Source: a virus
Taxonomy: Duplodnaviria > Heunggongvirae > Uroviricota > Caudoviricetes
DNA length: 10,385 nucleotides
IMG/VR virus record: IMGVR_UViG_3300034022_000539
Strand: one strand, 5' to 3'
Shown here piece after piece: positions 1,082 through 10,385 of the stretch (position 1 is the stretch's first letter; each line of letters begins with the position of its first letter). A model generated the notes under the pieces. It was given only the letters and a program-made list of their open reading frames with translations, was not told where the DNA came from and did not search any database. A program made the translations under genes and the position numbers.

Positions 1082-1089
1082 TATTTATA
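1082..1089 (-). promoter_or_regulatory. Putative T4-late-type promoter box (TATAAATA) overlapping the clpP stop codon
   Basis: Exact TATAAATA on the minus strand, 8 nt upstream of the ATG at 1073. Confidence 0.35.
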
Positions 1090-1774
1090 TTTGTTTTGGT
1101 TTTATGATCTCATCTATAATACCATATTTAACTGCTTCTTCTGCATTTAACCAAAAATCTCGAGTAGCATCTTTCATTACTCTTTCTGGTTTCTTGCCAC
1201 AATATGATCCTAATAGATTAAATAGTTCATAGTTTACTTTTTGCCATTCTGCCCAATCTACTTCAGCGTCTTGTATATTTCCACTAAAACCACCCGAAGA
1301 TTGGTGTAACATTGTTGTCGAATGTCTCAAAGACGCTCTTTTACCTTTAGTTCCAGCACCTAATAAGACTGAACCCATTGATGCTGCCATACCAGTATTA
1401 ACTGTGCGTATATCACATGGTATGTATTCCATAACGTCTACCATAGAAAGCCCTGACTTAACTGAACCACCTGGAGAATCGATATGCATTGTAATATCGT
1501 CTGCGCTATTGCTTGATAAAAACATTAATTGTGCTTGTACAACAGTGCTCATATTGTCATCTACTGGACCTGCAACCCATAATAATCTATCTGCCATTAA
1601 TCTTGAAAAAATATCCATTTGAGTAACTCGCATTTCACGCTCCTCTAAAATATAAGGAGTCATTGAAGCTTGCTTACTTGCAATTGAACTATATAAGTCT
1701 AAGTGTGATCCACCTAAATTGAATTCTGATTTTGCGAATCTGTGAAATTCTTTTTCTTTTGGAAAATAATTCAT
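1085..1774 (-). CDS. clpP: ATP-dependent Clp protease proteolytic subunit, Bacteroidota-type N-terminus
   Basis: Motifs MTPYILEER, DIFSRL..DR, SPGGSV, GMAASMG (Ser132), MLHQ (His157), RDFW (Asp206). The triad spacing of 25 and 49 residues matches E. coli Ser97/His122/Asp171. Confidence 0.97.
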   Translation of the reverse strand: MNYFPKEKEFHRFAKSEFNLGGSHLDLYSSIASKQASMTPYILEEREMRVTQMDIFSRLMADRLLWVAGPVDDNMSTVVQAQLMFLSSNSADDITMHIDSPGGSVKSGLSMVDVMEYIPCDIRTVNTGMAASMGSVLLGAGTKGKRASLRHSTTMLHQSSGGFSGNIQDAEVDWAEWQKVNYELFNLLGSYCGKKPERVMKDATRDFWLNAEEAVKYGIIDEIIKPKQI

Positions 1775-2083: not shown

Positions 2084-2932
2084 TTATAACGTAAAGTAAT
2101 CACTTAATATTGCTTTGTAGTTAACATCACTGTCTCCGCTTGTTTGATCTACTCTTGTTACGAATTCAATTCCAGCATCTGTCAAAAATACATTACCGTC
2201 TTTGTAATCTATAAGTGGTTGTTTTAGAATTAAACTAGATACAGTATCTTTTAAATCTTCTTGTTTGATTTTTTCAGCTAGTTCAAAATGTCTTTCGTAA
2301 AAGTGTAAGTTGTCTGCGAAATGGTAATAATCACCTAATTCTAAAGATTTATACTTGTCATCTTTTTTAAGAATCAAATATACAGATTGCATTAAGAATG
2401 AAAAGAACGGTGCATCAAATGTAAGACCATAGAAAACATCATTTGATCTCATCTGAATCTTCATGTTTAATTTATTATCTCTAATAAAGAAGTTAGCGTA
2501 CATTGTACATACGAAATCTTTATTGCCTTTGAATTGAAACTTAGGTTGATTAAAGAACATGATAGCTTGACGACTATTGTCATCAGCTAATAATGAATCA
2601 ACTACCCAACCAATTTGTTCATTATTGATAACTAATGCACCATAATTTGAATTGATTTGGTTTGTACCTTGATTTGTGATACCTTTCCAGAAATTTGAAA
2701 ATTTATTAATGTAACTAATATCTGTGTCTCTGTGAAGATACCATGCCATTTCACCTGCAAAGTATTTCCAATTGAATTTTCTTGATTCAAAATTTGCAAT
2801 TGGTTTTTTAGGATCAATTGTTATATCAGCTAATAATAATTCTTTGACTTCAAGATCTCTCGGTTTCGAGAGATCTCCGAATGTGTCTATTTGTAATATA
2901 GCTTCTTTAAGTATATTTGAAAAGTCTGTCAT
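2084..2932 (-). CDS. Thymidylate-synthase-superfamily enzyme, dCMP hydroxymethylase (T4 gp42)-like
   Basis: Motifs EMAWY, INSNYG, DDNSRQAIM, KDFVCT (Cys142), IRDNKLN..QMRSNDVFYG, LTFDAPF (Asp173, 31 residues after the Cys), LHFYERHF. These match gp42 motifs as recalled (ELEWY, INSNYG, SDFMCT, MRSNDVVFG, RND179, LHVYSRHF). Confidence 0.8.
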   Translation of the reverse strand: MTDFSNILKEAILQIDTFGDLSKPRDLEVKELLLADITIDPKKPIANFESRKFNWKYFAGEMAWYLHRDTDISYINKFSNFWKGITNQGTNQINSNYGALVINNEQIGWVVDSLLADDNSRQAIMFFNQPKFQFKGNKDFVCTMYANFFIRDNKLNMKIQMRSNDVFYGLTFDAPFFSFLMQSVYLILKKDDKYKSLELGDYYHFADNLHFYERHFELAEKIKQEDLKDTVSSLILKQPLIDYKDGNVFLTDAGIEFVTRVDQTSGDSDVNYKAILSDYFTL

Positions 2933-2959: not shown

Positions 2960-4975
2960 CTATAATTTAATAAATAGTTTATCTTCTGATGTAATCTTAG
3001 TGATTGTGTATTCTATATCTTTTTTAATACTTTGATCGATAATTGCATCTGCAACAATATCTTCAACATATTTTTGTATAGCTCTTTTTACTGGTCTTGC
3101 ACCATAAGATTGATCGTATCCTTCTTTTACTAAGAAATCTTTAGCTTGTTTAGAAAACTTAAAGAAGTAACCTTCGTCTTGCATTCTATAAGAAAAGTTA
3201 TCTAGTTCTATTTGAACAATTTTTAATATGTCAGTGTTCTCTAATTGATCGAATAAAACAATATCATCTAATCTGTTTAAGAATTCAGGACTAAATTTGT
3301 TCTTTAATTCTTTTTTAATAATGGAATCCATCTTTTTGCTTTCTTCGGCTATTGCTGAGCCACTTGCAAATCCAATTCCTGATCCAAAATCTGCAACCTT
3401 TCTGGCACCAACATTTGATGTCATGATGATAATAGTATTTGTAAAATCTACTGTACGTCCACTTGAATCTGTTAATCGACCTTCATCTAATACCTGTAAT
3501 AAAGTGTTGAATACATCTGGGTGGGCTTTCTCGATCTCATCAAACAAGACAACTGAATAAGGTTTACGTCTAACCGCTTCAGTTAATTGACCGCCTTCCT
3601 CGTGTCCTACGTAACCTGGAGGAGATCCTATCAAACGACTCACATTGAATTTTTCTTGATACTCACTCATATCAATTCTAATCATAGCATCAATATCTCC
3701 AAATAAGTATTCGGCTAAAGCTTTTACTGTTTCAGTTTTACCAACACCAGTTGGTCCTAAGAACATGAATGATCCACTTGGTTTTCTATGACTAGCAACA
3801 CCAGTTCTAGATCTTTTAATAACACTACATAAAGCATCTACCGCTTTGTCTTGTCCGATAATCATTTTCTTGATTTCTGCGGCCATGTTCTTAATCATCT
3901 TAAGATCGTCAACTCCTAATTTATTTACAGGAATTCCAGTTTGTGTAGATATTGTTTCAGCTATATCTTCTACTGTGATTTTTAATTTAGTCACCTTAAG
4001 TGACTCTTCCCATAAAGTAGTCTCTTGAGCAATTTTATTTTCTATTGACAATTGATCATCTCTAAGTCTTGCAGCAACTTCATAATCTTGTTCTTCGACT
4101 GCTTTTTTCTTTTGTAATTTAATGTCTTCAGATTGTTTCTCAAGGTTTTTTATCTTTGATGGAATTTTAACCTCTAGTAAATGTGTTCTTGCACCAGCTT
4201 CATCCATTAAATCAATGGCCTTGTCAGGAAGTTCTCTTTGTTTAATATAACGATCACTCATTCTTACACATGCATCAATAGCTTCATCTGTATATTCTAC
4301 AGAGTGATACTCTTCGTAGTTATGTTTGATACGCATAAGAATATCAATGGTATCTTCAACTGATGGAGCATCTACAAACACTTCTTGGAAACGTCTAGTT
4401 AATGCACCATCATCTTCAATATTCTCGCGATATTCATCTAATGTTGTTGCACCAATACATTGTACTTGTCCACGTGCTAATGCTGGTTTAAGGATATTAG
4501 ATGCATCTAAAGCACCGCTAACACCACCTGCACCAACAATTGTATGTAACTCATCAATGAATATAATAACATTATCATTGGCTTTAAGTTCCTCTACAAT
4601 ATTTTTCATTCTCTCTTCGAATTCACCCCTGTATTTAGTACCTGCTACGATGGTAGTCATATTCAATGAAATAAGTCTTTTATTAATCAAGACTCTTGCC
4701 ACTTTCTTATCAACTATTCGTTGTGCGATAGCTTCTACAATTGCAGTTTTACCAACACCTGGATCACCTAAGATAATTGGATTGTTTTTCTTTCTTCGTG
4801 CCAAAATCTGACAAATTCTATGAATCTCTTTATCTCTACCGATAATAGGATCCAATTTACCTTCAGCTGCAGCCGCAGTCAAATCCTCACCGAATTCATC
4901 TAAGAATGGTGTAGTCTTTTTCTTTTGGTTGCCCTTTCTGTTTTTCTCGTTTTCGTATCCGTCTGCTAATGACAT
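2960..4975 (-). CDS. clpC: ClpC-type AAA+ unfoldase lacking the N-terminal Clp-repeat domain (671 aa)
   Basis: NBD1: GDPGVGKT, GTKYRGEFEER, IFIDELH, LTRRFQ. Short UVR-type M-domain: AVEEQDYEVAARLRD. NBD2: GPTGVGKT, GYVG, LFDEIEKAH, GARPV. ClpP-docking IGF loop at 3368-3376. Only about 20 residues precede TPFLDEFG.DLT. Confidence 0.9.
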   Translation of the reverse strand: MSLADGYENEKNRKGNQKKKTTPFLDEFGEDLTAAAAEGKLDPIIGRDKEIHRICQILARRKKNNPIILGDPGVGKTAIVEAIAQRIVDKKVARVLINKRLISLNMTTIVAGTKYRGEFEERMKNIVEELKANDNVIIFIDELHTIVGAGGVSGALDASNILKPALARGQVQCIGATTLDEYRENIEDDGALTRRFQEVFVDAPSVEDTIDILMRIKHNYEEYHSVEYTDEAIDACVRMSDRYIKQRELPDKAIDLMDEAGARTHLLEVKIPSKIKNLEKQSEDIKLQKKKAVEEQDYEVAARLRDDQLSIENKIAQETTLWEESLKVTKLKITVEDIAETISTQTGIPVNKLGVDDLKMIKNMAAEIKKMIIGQDKAVDALCSVIKRSRTGVASHRKPSGSFMFLGPTGVGKTETVKALAEYLFGDIDAMIRIDMSEYQEKFNVSRLIGSPPGYVGHEEGGQLTEAVRRKPYSVVLFDEIEKAHPDVFNTLLQVLDEGRLTDSSGRTVDFTNTIIIMTSNVGARKVADFGSGIGFASGSAIAEESKKMDSIIKKELKNKFSPEFLNRLDDIVLFDQLENTDILKIVQIELDNFSYRMQDEGYFFKFSKQAKDFLVKEGYDQSYGARPVKRAIQKYVEDIVADAIIDQSIKKDIEYTITKITSEDKLFIKL

Positions 4976-5828: not shown

Positions 5829-6527
5829 TTATTGATTGATAAATTTATTGGCACGTTCAAGATCTTCTGGCGTATCAATACCAAATGACTTGTATTCTGT
5901 GAATTCAGAAACTACTTGGATTCCATTATCCATCCAAGTCAATTGCTCTAATGAATTATTTATTGAGTTTTCTGAAGGTTTCAATTTAGATATTCTATTT
6001 AATGTTTCCTTAGAATATCCATATATTCCGATATGTTTAAATATAAAATTGTTTTTATCATAAACATTGCTCCGCGTAAACATCACTGCAATACCCATAT
6101 GATTAGTTAAAATCTTAACTGCATTCGGATCAATAGATTCATTTTCAATTAAGTCGGTTTTAAGAGTAGCTACTGAGTTTGGATTTGCCTTAATCAATTT
6201 TATAATTAGGTCAATATCCGATGGATTGATAAAAGGTTCATCACCCTGTACATTAATAATAATATCGCTATTAATTGATCGATGTGCTTGAATAACTCTC
6301 TCTGTTCCAGTTTCACATTCGGTTGTTGCTATTACTTTAGCTCCGAAATTTTCAGCAACTTCAGATATTAATCGACTATCTGTGGCAATAATTACTTCAT
6401 CTGCATTAGATTGACATGCTCGTTCCCAAGTATGTTGAATCATTGGTTTGTCACCGATCATTGCTAATGGTTTTCCAGGTAATCGAGTTGACTTAAATCT
6501 TGCAGGTATAATAACCGTCACTTTCAT
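5829..6527 (-). CDS. kdsB: 3-deoxy-manno-octulosonate cytidylyltransferase (CMP-Kdo synthetase)
   Basis: Motifs IIPARFKSTRLPGKPL, TGTERV, NVQGDEP, PNAVK, FTRS, HIGIYGY, LEQL, GIDTPEDL. Confidence 0.92.
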   Translation of the reverse strand: MKVTVIIPARFKSTRLPGKPLAMIGDKPMIQHTWERACQSNADEVIIATDSRLISEVAENFGAKVIATTECETGTERVIQAHRSINSDIIINVQGDEPFINPSDIDLIIKLIKANPNSVATLKTDLIENESIDPNAVKILTNHMGIAVMFTRSNVYDKNNFIFKHIGIYGYSKETLNRISKLKPSENSINNSLEQLTWMDNGIQVVSEFTEYKSFGIDTPEDLERANKFINQ

Positions 6528-7123
6528 TATTGCTCTTTACTCTTTTGACCTAAATAACCGCTGTGATGTCTTTTTGAATATTCTCTTTTAGTGAAGCCAA
6601 TTTTCTTCATTAACTCTACCACTATAATATCTCCAATTACTGTCATCAGTGTTGTTGAAATAGTAGGTGTTAATCCAAGTGGACAAATTTCTTCTGAATC
6701 ACCAGTATGCAATACAACATCTGATTCGATTGCTAATGGACTGTCTATTTTACCAGTGATAGAAATTACTTTAACCTTCGGTTGTAAAATCCTAGACAGC
6801 ATGATTAATTCACTGATCTCTCTGGTTTTACCAGAATTTGATAATAATATAAGAACGTCGTGTTTACAAAGAATTCCTAAATCACCATGTTGAGCTTCGC
6901 TTGGATGCAAATAAACAGCAGGTGTTCCAGTTGAACACAAAGTCTGTGCTATGTTTATACCAATTTGTCCAGCCTTTCCCATTCCACTAACAACTATTTT
7001 TCCACCTAAATCGTGTACTTGATATTTGATTATATCCACGGCAGATTCGAATGAATCATTTATTGGAATATTTTGAATTGCTTCAACTTCTAGTTGAATT
7101 ATTTTTTTAATATTATCTTGCAT
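6527..7123 (-). CDS. kdsD: Arabinose-5-phosphate isomerase, SIS-domain-only (no CBS domains), Bacteroides type
   Basis: Motifs SGMGKAGQI, STGTPAVYLHPSEAQHGDLG, SNSGKTRE, CPLGLTPT.STT, EYSKRHH.GYLG. At 198 aa it closely resembles the stand-alone SIS API of Bacteroides fragilis as recalled. Confidence 0.9.
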   Translation of the reverse strand: MQDNIKKIIQLEVEAIQNIPINDSFESAVDIIKYQVHDLGGKIVVSGMGKAGQIGINIAQTLCSTGTPAVYLHPSEAQHGDLGILCKHDVLILLSNSGKTREISELIMLSRILQPKVKVISITGKIDSPLAIESDVVLHTGDSEEICPLGLTPTISTTLMTVIGDIIVVELMKKIGFTKREYSKRHHSGYLGQKSKEQ

Positions 7124-7126
7124 AAT

Positions 7127-8242
7127 CTAGTTTGATAGTGGTGCTTTGATTTCTGGATGTGATTCGTAATTTACCAGTTTAATTGAGTTCCTGTCTATTT
7201 TATTAAATTCAGTAATGTAACCATCATAATATGTATACTCAAAATCTAATTCAATATTGGGCAATTTCATAGGTTCTCTATTTAATTGTTCTTTTGCCTG
7301 TTCAATATGATTAGAATATAGGTGAACATCTCCAAGATTTCCAATTAATTCATCAGGAACCATGTTAACGCGTTTTGCTAACATCATCAATAATAGACCA
7401 TACGAAGCAATGTTAAATGGTAACCCCAAGAATGTGTCTACACTTCGCTGATTCCACATTAATGAGATTGCTCGAGCTGGTATTTCATTTTCATCATATT
7501 GATTATGAGTGTAGATATTTCCAGCAGGGTTATGTGTATTATTCCATAATTTTGCTCGCTCTTCTAAACTCAACTCTCTTGTATAAACTTGAAATCCATA
7601 GTGACATGGCGGAAGTACCATTTGATCAATTTCTGCAACATTCCATGCATTAACCATTAATCTTCTAGAATCTGGATTCCTTTCAAGATCTGCAATAAGT
7701 CGAAGTATTTGATCGTACCAAAGAGAACCGTGTCCTTTCGAACCATCATCGTTTTTATAATGCATCCAACCTTGCCATTGTCTCCATTGTTTGCCATAAA
7801 CTGGACCTAAATCTCCAAGTTGGTAACCTGTCAAATCTGGAATAAAATGAGTAGCAGGACTTTTAATCTTCTCGATCCAATCTCGATCATCTTTGTAGTT
7901 CTTAATTCCCTGGATAAATTGTTCCATCGACATTGGATCTACACCATGTGCAACACATTCCTTTTCATATCCTTTGTATGCATCACCATTCCAAATATTA
8001 CAATTGTTGTCAACTAAGAATTTGATATTGGTATCGCCCTGTAAAAACCAAAGTAACTCAGTTACCATGGTTTTAAATGCCATTTTCTTGGTAGTCAATA
8101 ATGGAAATCCTTCGGACATTTTGTGTCTAATCTGACGACCAAAAATTGAGACAGTTCCTGTTCCAGTTCTATCTTGTTTCTCGATACCATTGTCAAGAAT
8201 GTCTTTAAGTAATTTTAAGTAATCGTGTTCTATGTTATTCAT
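7127..8242 (-). CDS. thyA: Thymidylate synthase ThyA with several insertions (371 aa)
   Basis: Motifs DRTGTGT, FPLLTTKK, ELLWFL.GDTN, GDLGPVYGKQWR, PDSRR, LPPCH (Cys213), QRSVD.FLGLPFNIASY (Asn277, dUMP-type), GDVHLY.NH. Confidence 0.97.
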   Translation of the reverse strand: MNNIEHDYLKLLKDILDNGIEKQDRTGTGTVSIFGRQIRHKMSEGFPLLTTKKMAFKTMVTELLWFLQGDTNIKFLVDNNCNIWNGDAYKGYEKECVAHGVDPMSMEQFIQGIKNYKDDRDWIEKIKSPATHFIPDLTGYQLGDLGPVYGKQWRQWQGWMHYKNDDGSKGHGSLWYDQILRLIADLERNPDSRRLMVNAWNVAEIDQMVLPPCHYGFQVYTRELSLEERAKLWNNTHNPAGNIYTHNQYDENEIPARAISLMWNQRSVDTFLGLPFNIASYGLLLMMLAKRVNMVPDELIGNLGDVHLYSNHIEQAKEQLNREPMKLPNIELDFEYTYYDGYITEFNKIDRNSIKLVNYESHPEIKAPLSN

Positions 8243-9697: not shown

Positions 9698-10385
9698 TCA
9701 AATTAGATTAGAATTTACAAAATGCACTATATTATTTAAATCTGGATTGTGAAGTGTCCAATGATTAAATCCAAGTGATTCCATTCTATCGTAGATTTTT
9801 TGGGCTTTAGTTTCACCAATAGCATCAACGTGTAATTCCATAGATACACATCGAGTATTCTTTAGAAACTGATCACTCATACCATCAAATGCAAATATCT
9901 CTGCACCTTCAATATCCATCTTAATAAAGTCAGGTTGTTCAATTAATCTATTATTAATCATGGTGTCTACCGTCATTGACATTACGTTCTGTAAAACGCC
10001 ATCATCATATTTAACAATCGAGCTTCCACCTGGACAATCTGATTTGTAAGCTATTTTAACTAATTGATTATCAGTATTTGAAATGGCTACTTTGAACACT
10101 TCACATTGCTCTGGTTTATTTAGTAAGAGAAGCAAAAAGTTTTCATTTGTAGGTTCTACACTATAAATCTTCTTGGCACCTTTTGCCGCAGCAAATCTAC
10201 TAAAAACACCAATATTTGCACCTAAGTCCAAAACCACATCATTCGGTCTGATTTCGCATGCACCTCTTTGGTATAAGCAATCGTCAGTATAACCTCCAGA
10301 ATGACAGTCAAATATTTCATAGTAGATCAAAACGGGTTCATCTATGATTCCCGCACTATAACTAGGGAAAACGTTATTTCGCACT
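9698..10385 (-). CDS. FkbM-family SAM-dependent methyltransferase, probably 5'-truncated by the window edge
   Basis: SAM-binding motif VVLDLGANIGVFS, plus YSVEP, PDFIKMDIEGAE and SMELH. The frame is open to the edge, so the GTG at 10384 may be internal. Confidence 0.88.
   Translation of the reverse strand, partial: VRNNVFPSYSAGIIDEPVLIYYEIFDCHSGGYTDDCLYQRGACEIRPNDVVLDLGANIGVFSRFAAAKGAKKIYSVEPTNENFLLLLLNKPEQCEVFKVAISNTDNQLVKIAYKSDCPGGSSIVKYDDGVLQNVMSMTVDTMINNRLIEQPDFIKMDIEGAEIFAFDGMSDQFLKNTRCVSMELHVDAIGETKAQKIYDRMESLGFNHWTLHNPDLNNIVHFVNSNLI

Follow-up and report, generated by a model that had tools for sequence, protein, structure and literature searches.

Why should a phage encode two proteins with the thymidylate synthase (TS) fold? 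The question is raised by a 10,385-bp stretch of DNA with 32% G+C (hereafter the window, meaning the whole stretch analyzed) from the tailed-phage record IMGVR_UViG_3300034022_000539, in which every gene lies on the minus strand. The window is the reverse complement of L001:2547-12932, within a 260,917-bp ENA metagenome contig of which 20.8 kb was examined for gene content. One of its two TS-fold genes encodes a canonical ThyA; the product of the other, the open reading frame (ORF) at 2084-2932, is referred to here as the TS-like protein. An initial annotation had proposed that this second protein acts on dCMP, so that the phage would replace cytosine with 5-hydroxymethylcytosine (5hmC) or a related base while keeping ThyA for dTMP. 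Our sequence comparisons make it likely that the ORF encodes a dCMP 5-hydroxymethylase of the T4 gp42 type, a part of the proposal supported by the active-site signature, the best database match, the tree and the gp56-like and alpha-gt-like genes of related phages. Replacement of cytosine in the virion DNA is a further step, which we infer from the predicted activity.

Active site and fold of the TS-like protein

The TS-like protein contains the motifs INSNYG (93-98), DFVCT (139-143), MRSND (161-165), LTFDAPF (170-176) and LHFYERHF (209-216). A script placed each motif listed in the initial annotation at these positions and confirmed the spacing that had been claimed, with Asp173 lying 31 residues downstream of Cys142, the sole cysteine of the protein. 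The window ThyA instead reads LPFNIASY, with N277 in place of the Asp, and PPCH, with C213; its residues L210, C213, H214, D269 and N277 are those found in E. coli ThyA at the same positions. The TS-fold identity is not a chance resemblance, since the Pfam match (E 5.7e-19), the match to the best solved relative (T4 dCMP hydroxymethylase, dCH; 1b49, E 4.3e-19) and 1757 homologues at E < 1e-5 in a word-indexed search of public protein data all point the same way. In the 1b49 match D173 is aligned to gp42 D179; other solved structures match more weakly (MilA, 5e-12; E. coli ThyA, about 5e-8). Likewise, phmmer gives 1.8e-20 for T4 gp42, 8e-10 for E. coli ThyA and 1.9e-4 for RB69 gp48. An exhaustive search against representatives at 50% identity returned 5141 homologues at E <= 0.001, 155 of them at E <= 1e-30.

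We aligned the protein with T4 gp42, RB69 gp48, E. coli ThyA, the window ThyA, a ViI-like homologue (Ag3) and 143 representatives of 50%-identity clusters. Its signature reads E61, W82, S95, Y97, R121, Q122, D139, C142, S163, D165, D173, H210 and Y212, and 12 of these 13 positions are identical in T4 gp42, the exception being Q122 (gp42 R124). Equivalents of the T4 folate-site residues Glu60, Trp82 and Asp171 are present as E61, W82 and D165. From the phosphate clamp (T4 R123', R124', R168 and S169), R121, R162 and S163 are kept and R124' is replaced by Gln122. Conservation of the core is nearly complete: C142 is invariant in 120 close and 143 diverse homologues, Asp occupies position 173 in 143/143, and the combination D139-C142-D165-D173 occurs in 120/120 close homologues and in all but one of the 143 representatives (142/143). 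In T4 dCH the mutants S94N, Y96F, D145N, C148S and D179N yield zero or negligible product, and an Asp three residues before the Cys, together with Ser94-x-Tyr96, has been proposed from the ternary complex as the signature of hydroxymethylation (PMC6400193).

The protein is also distinct from ThyA. Both E. coli ThyA and the window ThyA have Pro, Leu and Asn at the positions of residues 95, 139 and 173, and in place of the canonical Asn177, Leu143 and His147 (E. coli numbering) the TS-like protein has D173, D139 and T143, the last corresponding to H214 of the window ThyA. When environmental phage DNA was enriched for modified cytosine, the TS residues most associated with modification were Asp at position 177 and a non-His residue at 147 (PMC8670742, MetaGPA). 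The Asn-to-Asp switch invoked by the initial annotation is thus present; taken alone, however, Asp at position 177 is insufficient for 5hmC, because TS homologues that carry this Asp in RB69, DLP3, RL38J1 and others are flavin-binding and produce 5-hydroxy-dCMP (PMC13326640). The hallmark of these 5-hydroxy-dCMP synthases is an Asn at E. coli D169; at L143, an acidic residue accompanies hydroxymethyl or hydroxy products and a hydrophobic one methyl products (PMC13326640). It is the presence of Asp165, Asp139 and Ser95-x-Tyr97 that indicates hydroxymethylation.

In a maximum-likelihood tree rooted on ThyA, a check that the initial annotation had suggested, the TS-like protein and T4 gp42 form one clade (SH-like approximate likelihood ratio test, SH-aLRT, 88), apart from the ViI-like homologue, RB69 gp48 and ThyA. 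The ViI-like homologue has Asn at the position of residue 173 (E. coli 177), the signature expected of a dUMP hydroxymethylase, and Gln at that of residue 122. With long branches leading to all three references, the placement is indicative only.

An AlphaFold2 model based on an alignment of 131 sequences (predicted local distance difference test, pLDDT, 97.2; predicted template modeling score, pTM, 0.94) has no low-confidence stretch. Foldseek matches it to MilA, T4 dCH and many ThyAs at E about 1e-16 to 1e-19. With VIA-align, model residues 1-282 superpose on MilA (Z 26.6) and 5-282 on residues 1-249 of E. coli ThyA (Z 22.9); the superposition is confined to 1-227 for T4 dCH (Z 22.3) and to 1-224 for the flavin-dependent dCMP monooxygenase 9iqc (Z 22.2). 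These alignments alter the view of the C-terminal segment of about 60 aa that the initial annotation had described as extra. The difference in length is real (72 residues follow His210, as against 30 after the equivalent gp42 His), but the segment is not an added module. Since the model aligns over its full length to MilA and ThyA, and the median relative also has 72 residues, the roughly 55-aa segment is, as modeled, an ordinary ancestral TS/MilA sub-structure that was lost in gp42 and in the 5-hydroxycytosine (5hoC) synthases. The model ends near residue 249 of the 264 in E. coli ThyA and is without the C-terminal tail. In ThyA this tail closes the active site for hydride transfer, and its absence would fit a hydroxymethylase.

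TS-family enzymes dimerize, and the enzyme that we propose would be a homodimeric, methylene-tetrahydrofolate-dependent deoxycytidylate 5-hydroxymethylase. Cys142 would attack C6 of dCMP, Asp173 would recognize and protonate cytosine N3/N4, and Glu61 would open the cofactor while Trp82 and Asp165 hold the pterin. Asp139, with Ser95 and Tyr97, would position a water that traps the exocyclic methylene, and for this reason the product would be 5-hydroxymethyl-dCMP and not 5-methyl-dCMP. The modified nucleotide would then be phosphorylated and built into phage DNA in place of dC, with the separate ThyA making dTMP.

Pathway genes in related phages

The phage group is T4-like, since a gp23 capsid protein of the T4 type is encoded on each of four large and related IMG/VR contigs (G001-G004; 149-261 kb, 49-88% complete). 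The genes that the initial annotation advised looking for, namely those for a dCTPase, a deoxynucleoside monophosphate (dNMP) kinase and a DNA glycosyltransferase, were sought by running phmmer with T4 and RB69 proteins on every ORF of the related contigs. G001, G002 and G003 each encode a gp56-like all-alpha NTP pyrophosphatase (phmmer E 1e-16 to 1e-21), which falls in phrog_173, as does T4 gp56 itself, and is 36% identical to T4 gp56 end to end. For such proteins the Pfam dUTPase_2 model proved too insensitive, and phrog_173 and phmmer with T4 gp56 succeeded. In G003 a full-length homologue of the T4 alpha-glucosyltransferase lies directly upstream of the gp56-like gene (phmmer 3.4e-25, Pfam AGT 3.1e-18, phrog_2888 9.3e-67). 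In G002 the stretch next to the gp56-like gene encodes a protein with the helical domain of 5-hydroxymethyldeoxyuridine DNA kinase (HMUDK; PF18723, 7.9e-14). A dCMP deaminase is found in G001, G003, G004 and G005; G004 has no gp56-like gene and carries a trimeric dUTPase-family gene instead.

Enzymes of the alpha-gt and HMUDK types act on the 5-hydroxymethyl group in DNA. Because they need this group, their genes independently favor a hydroxymethyl product in the clade. To our knowledge HMUDK-family kinases occur only in pathways for 5-hydroxymethyluracil (hmU), and finding one next to a TS homologue of the cytosine type would be a novel pairing.

Relatives differ in the stretch that separates the gp56-like gene from a conserved small gene (Table 1). 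In G001 (122067-123128) and G002 (L166:1079-2116) it opens with a conserved protein of 345-361 aa (phrog_13881, without a Pfam family), the gene for which directly adjoins the TS-like gene in G004 (G004:80885-81970). Separate parts of the profile phrog_17781 (795 positions) match this protein and the HMUDK-like protein, which suggests that the two occur fused in other phages. An Atlas search with the conserved 345-aa protein brought up only viral clusters without a name, together with a weak SGNH-like similarity of the protein, and a PDB sequence search with the HMUDK-like protein gave no match. The FkbM methyltransferase of the window has a homologue (E 5e-11) in the variable stretch of G002 (L166:3862-4530), beside the HMUDK-like gene. 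In that contig the gp56-like gene is flanked by FkbM and by a 73-aa ORF that lies upstream of ThyA. Both flanking genes have counterparts in the window, where they enclose only a 70-aa ORF; hence a gp56-like gene, if present in the window phage, lies elsewhere. None of the best 120 homologues of the G001 gp56-like protein, or of the neighboring ribonucleotide reductase (RNR) small subunit, came from the 260,917-bp contig, and none of the best 80 of at least 232 loci in a metagenome scan for gp56-like genes came from the samples of the window.

Counter-evidence and alternative activities

Several observations weigh against a gp42-type hydroxymethylase. Gln122 of the TS-like protein stands where the partner subunit would contribute its second phosphate-binding Arg (T4 R124', E. 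coli R127'). This residue is invariant in the close family and present in 95/143 relatives as well as in the ViI-like homologue, and on these grounds the substitution is probably tolerated. Foldseek and VIA-align both place MilA slightly above T4 dCH, a ranking that arises because MilA retains the C-terminal part. On the side of the pathway, the 20.8 kb examined of the phage's own contig contained no gene for a gp56-like dCTPase, a gp1-type dNMP kinase or a DNA glycosyltransferase. Neither a gp1-type nor a thymidylate-kinase-type dNMP kinase was found in any relative, all of which are incomplete; searches of them with phrog_139 (T4 gp1), phrog_761 (thymidylate kinase) and RB69 gp45 gave only weak P-loop matches. 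Furthermore, the gp56-like protein of the relatives may be a dUTPase only.

One alternative is that of a flavin-dependent 5-hydroxy-dCMP synthase (RB69 gp48, DLP3 gp80 or 9iqc type) feeding an arabinosyl-5-hydroxycytosine pathway, with the nearby arabinose 5-phosphate (A5P) isomerase supplying the sugar. These enzymes share the Asp at the N177 position, 9iqc matches the model, and the KdsD-like isomerase encoded 3.6 kb from the TS-like gene is akin to RB69 gp55, the isomerase of that pathway (phmmer E 1.6e-24), with which it shares a SIS-only architecture. We nevertheless regard this reading as very improbable. The Asn that marks such synthases is absent, the TS-like protein having D165, and the folate-site Trp82 is kept; RB69 gp48 departs from the signature at W82 (Ala), S95 (Thr), D139 (Glu), D165 (Asn; N186) and Y212 (Phe), and both its phmmer score and its position in the tree set it apart from the TS-like protein and gp42. 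Nor does the window encode the AfhE-like kinase/uridylyltransferase or the HAD phosphatase of the arabinose pathway; the second sugar gene there encodes a true KdsB-family cytidylyltransferase instead. An XP12-type dCMP methyltransferase making 5-methyl-dCMP would likewise have the cytosine-specific Asp and an intact folate site. Yet, by the published criterion (PMC13326640, PMC6400193), such enzymes have at E. coli L143 a hydrophobic residue that keeps water out, where the TS-like protein has Asp139. The TS-like protein also has the water-binding Ser95-x-Tyr97 motif and Thr143 in place of His147, its model shows no counterpart of the tail over the ThyA active site, and relatives carry enzymes that require a hydroxymethyl group (the alpha-gt homologue and the HMUDK-like kinase); a methyltransferase is accordingly very unlikely.

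Hydroxymethylation might, alternatively, be directed at another nucleotide, either CMP, as by MilA or BcmA for a small molecule or RNA, or dUMP, as by SPO1 gp29 or the ViI-like protein for hmU-derived thymidine hypermodification. MilA is indeed the best structural match, and an HMUDK-family kinase occurs in the relative G002. However, Lys133' and Ala176 confer the ribose preference of MilA, deoxy-specific enzymes have Arg and Ser, and the A176S/K133R mutant of MilA loses CMP activity (PMC5175136); in the aligned columns the TS-like protein has the deoxyribose determinants R121 and S163. A dUMP hydroxymethylase combines Asn177 with an acidic residue at 143, and this uracil-requiring Asn is replaced by Asp in all 143 relatives (D173 here). 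The gene belongs, moreover, to a T4-like phage, and gp56-like and alpha-gt-like genes occur among the relatives of that phage; we assign this reading, too, a very low probability. Least probable of all is an inactive or regulatory TS paralogue without effect on DNA composition. The replacement of one phosphate-binding Arg by Gln122 could be read in this way, as could the G001 copy, which is split by a frameshift; against it, the catalytic residues are invariant across both close and distant homologues. In G001 the genes for the TS-like protein, ClpB and the RNR large subunit (L035-L045; 10842-13746, 129743-131456) are each split into 2-3 ORFs, and as ClpB and RNR show similar splits, that of the TS-like gene looks like a frameshift error in assembly and not gene decay. 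A useful product of these comparisons is a residue checklist that separates 5hmC, 5hoC, 5-methylcytosine, hmU and ribo-specific TS homologues.

Genomic setting and known systems

Table 1. Genes of the window (window coordinates) and the variable stretches of three related contigs
Feature	Coordinates	Strand	Description
FkbM-family methyltransferase	9698..10384	-	cut by window edge; 261-267 aa in L001; Pfam Methyltransf_21 E 3.5e-15
Six small ORFs between FkbM gene and ThyA		-	
Canonical thymidylate synthase ThyA	7127..8242	-	371 aa; Pfam PF00303 E 2.5e-92; NCBIfam TIGR03284 309 bits, above cut-off
SIS-only arabinose-5-phosphate isomerase, KdsD-like	6527..7123	-	198 aa; NCBIfam KdsD/KpsF E 1e-45 to 6e-48
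KdsB-like cytidylyltransferase	5829..6527	-	232 aa; NCBIfam NF003952 235.6 bits (cut-off 193); Pfam CTP_transf_3 E 3.5e-44
99-aa ORF, then RNaseH-like protein gene, between KdsB-like and ClpB/ClpC-type genes		-	
ClpB/ClpC-type double AAA+ ATPase	2960..4975	-	671 aa, without N-domain
TS-fold enzyme, predicted folate-dependent dCMP 5-hydroxymethylase	2084..2932	-	282 aa; ATG start; Pfam PF00303 E 5.7e-19
102-aa ORF between TS-like gene and ClpP		-	
ClpP	1085..1774	-	
Variable stretch of G003	L069:9894-11971		alpha-gt homologue
Variable stretch of G002	L166:1079-6500		myo-inositol-1-phosphate synthase, FkbM methyltransferase, PF18723 protein, cREC domain protein
Variable stretch of G001	L041:2067-7007		pyridoxal-phosphate-dependent enzyme (phrog_7093, annotated threonine dehydratase), unnamed proteins

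The TS-like gene is flanked by genes for ClpP and a ClpB/ClpC-type ATPase, a layout kept in all relatives (Table 1). The window ThyA is about 100 aa longer than that of E. coli owing to insertions, and the ThyAs of relatives range from 309 to 384 aa. Among distant members of the TS-like family, some are fused to other domains, namely a dCMP deaminase (P0357), a fusion that speaks for the gp42-type reading, and a GIY-YIG/NUMOD3 homing-endonuclease module (P0315); in P0351 a short thymidylate-kinase-like P-loop precedes the TS-like part, with an E of 2.7e-5 that lies below the Pfam cut-off. A search of L001:1-13000 against Rfam found no RNA family. The sequencing runs that hold the TS-like gene are lake-water and estuary metagenomes, relatives are found in TARA plus other marine and freshwater data, and the run search listed no nanopore runs containing the window.

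Between ThyA and the TS-like gene lies a KdsD-like and KdsB-like pair, candidates, from their sequences, for sugar supply and sugar activation, respectively. The pair occurs only in the lineage of the window (L001, L002, L004, L007 and L008) and not in G001-G004. NCBIfam scores of the KdsD-like protein fall below the cut-offs because the isomerase is without CBS domains. In a lineage at 76% identity (L007) the cluster (L007:4590-7453) additionally contains a methylglyoxal synthase and a cupin-type mannose-6-phosphate-isomerase domain. A search of five related records, each a fragment, turned up no KdsA (PF00793). For the TS-like protein (40.6%) and the KdsB-like protein (42.6%) alike, the best match in a phage database is LR756500.1, a 462-kb uncultured phage in which the two are encoded 21 kb apart. 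As candidate roles, the KdsD/KdsB genes could feed either DNA modification or a glycan on collagen-like fibers. L001:13020-19878 holds a gene for a 1080-aa collagen-repeat fiber protein, two unnamed genes and then a full-length DUF2827 protein (E 6e-76; L001:18679-19878). This protein was considered as a DNA glycosyltransferase and dropped, having no similarity to the alpha-gt homologue, no solved relative and a position near the collagen-like fiber gene; it may be a protein glycosyltransferase. DUF2827 is reportedly named in an abstract on trimeric autotransporters.

Further decoration of the hydroxymethyl group, differing from lineage to lineage, is probable in this clade. It is tempting to speculate, although we hold this stronger version to be unlikely, that 5hmC is only a platform that each lineage decorates differently, by glucosylation in G003, by HMUDK-like activation in G002 and by an A5P-derived sugar in the lineage of the window. 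In G002 the HMUDK-like kinase would then act on cytosine, alongside inositol-1-phosphate synthase, FkbM and cREC; in the lineage of the window, KdsD-like, KdsB-like and FkbM proteins would provide an activated sugar derived from A5P (CMP-Kdo or a relative) for attachment to hydroxymethylcytosine. If so, this lineage carries an undescribed DNA sugar modification. The gene sets beside the gp56-like gene, which vary among close relatives, are candidates for new cytosine hypermodification enzymes and are more promising than the TS-like enzyme itself.

Should the TS-like protein be the gp42-type enzyme that we propose, the DNA of abundant uncultured jumbo phages of lakes, estuaries and the sea would carry hydroxymethylcytosine or a derivative in place of cytosine. 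This would change which host defenses cut the DNA (restriction enzymes, CRISPR-Cas, type IV and glycosylase systems) and would affect how readily single-molecule sequencing and some library preparations recover such phages.

The enzyme itself is ordinary. It joins a well-known family and is not a new kind of system, because the pairing of two TS-fold genes is the arrangement of T4 (td and gene 42) and Asp177-type homologues are common in environmental phages with modified cytosine. With T4 gp42 (1B5E, 6A9A) it shares the TS fold, the catalytic Cys, the cytosine Asp, the Asp at Cys-3, Ser-x-Tyr and the Glu/Trp/Asp folate site, as well as a separate ThyA in a T4-like phage and relatives with gp56-like and alpha-gt-like genes. 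It differs in being only about 25% identical, in keeping the C-terminal TS sub-structure of about 55 aa, in having Gln122 for R124' and in that no gp1-type dNMP kinase was seen in its own 20.8 kb or in the incomplete relatives. The 5-hydroxy-dCMP synthases (RB69 gp48, DLP3 gp80, RL38J1 gp216; 9iqc; PMC13326640) resemble it in the TS fold, the Cys, the acidic residue at L143, the Asp at N177 and a phage A5P isomerase nearby; they are unlike it in having Asn at D169 and flavin and, in RB69 gp48, no folate-site Trp, where the TS-like protein has Asp165 and Trp82. MilA (5B6D, 5JNH) is the best full-length structural match, the C-terminal part included, and has the same hydroxymethylase residues, but it carries Lys133'/Ala176 in place of Arg121/Ser163, prefers ribose and belongs to an antibiotic pathway of Streptomyces. 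Also close are the environmental TS homologues of MetaGPA, which act on the route from 5hmC to 5-carbamoyloxymethylcytosine (PMC8670742) and likewise come from uncultured phages with Asp177 and a non-His residue at 147. No carbamoyltransferase was seen with the TS-like gene, whose neighbors are instead the KdsD/KdsB-like sugar genes and the FkbM methyltransferase. By analogy, the TS-like protein probably performs the first step of a variable hypermodification pathway, as in the MetaGPA phages.

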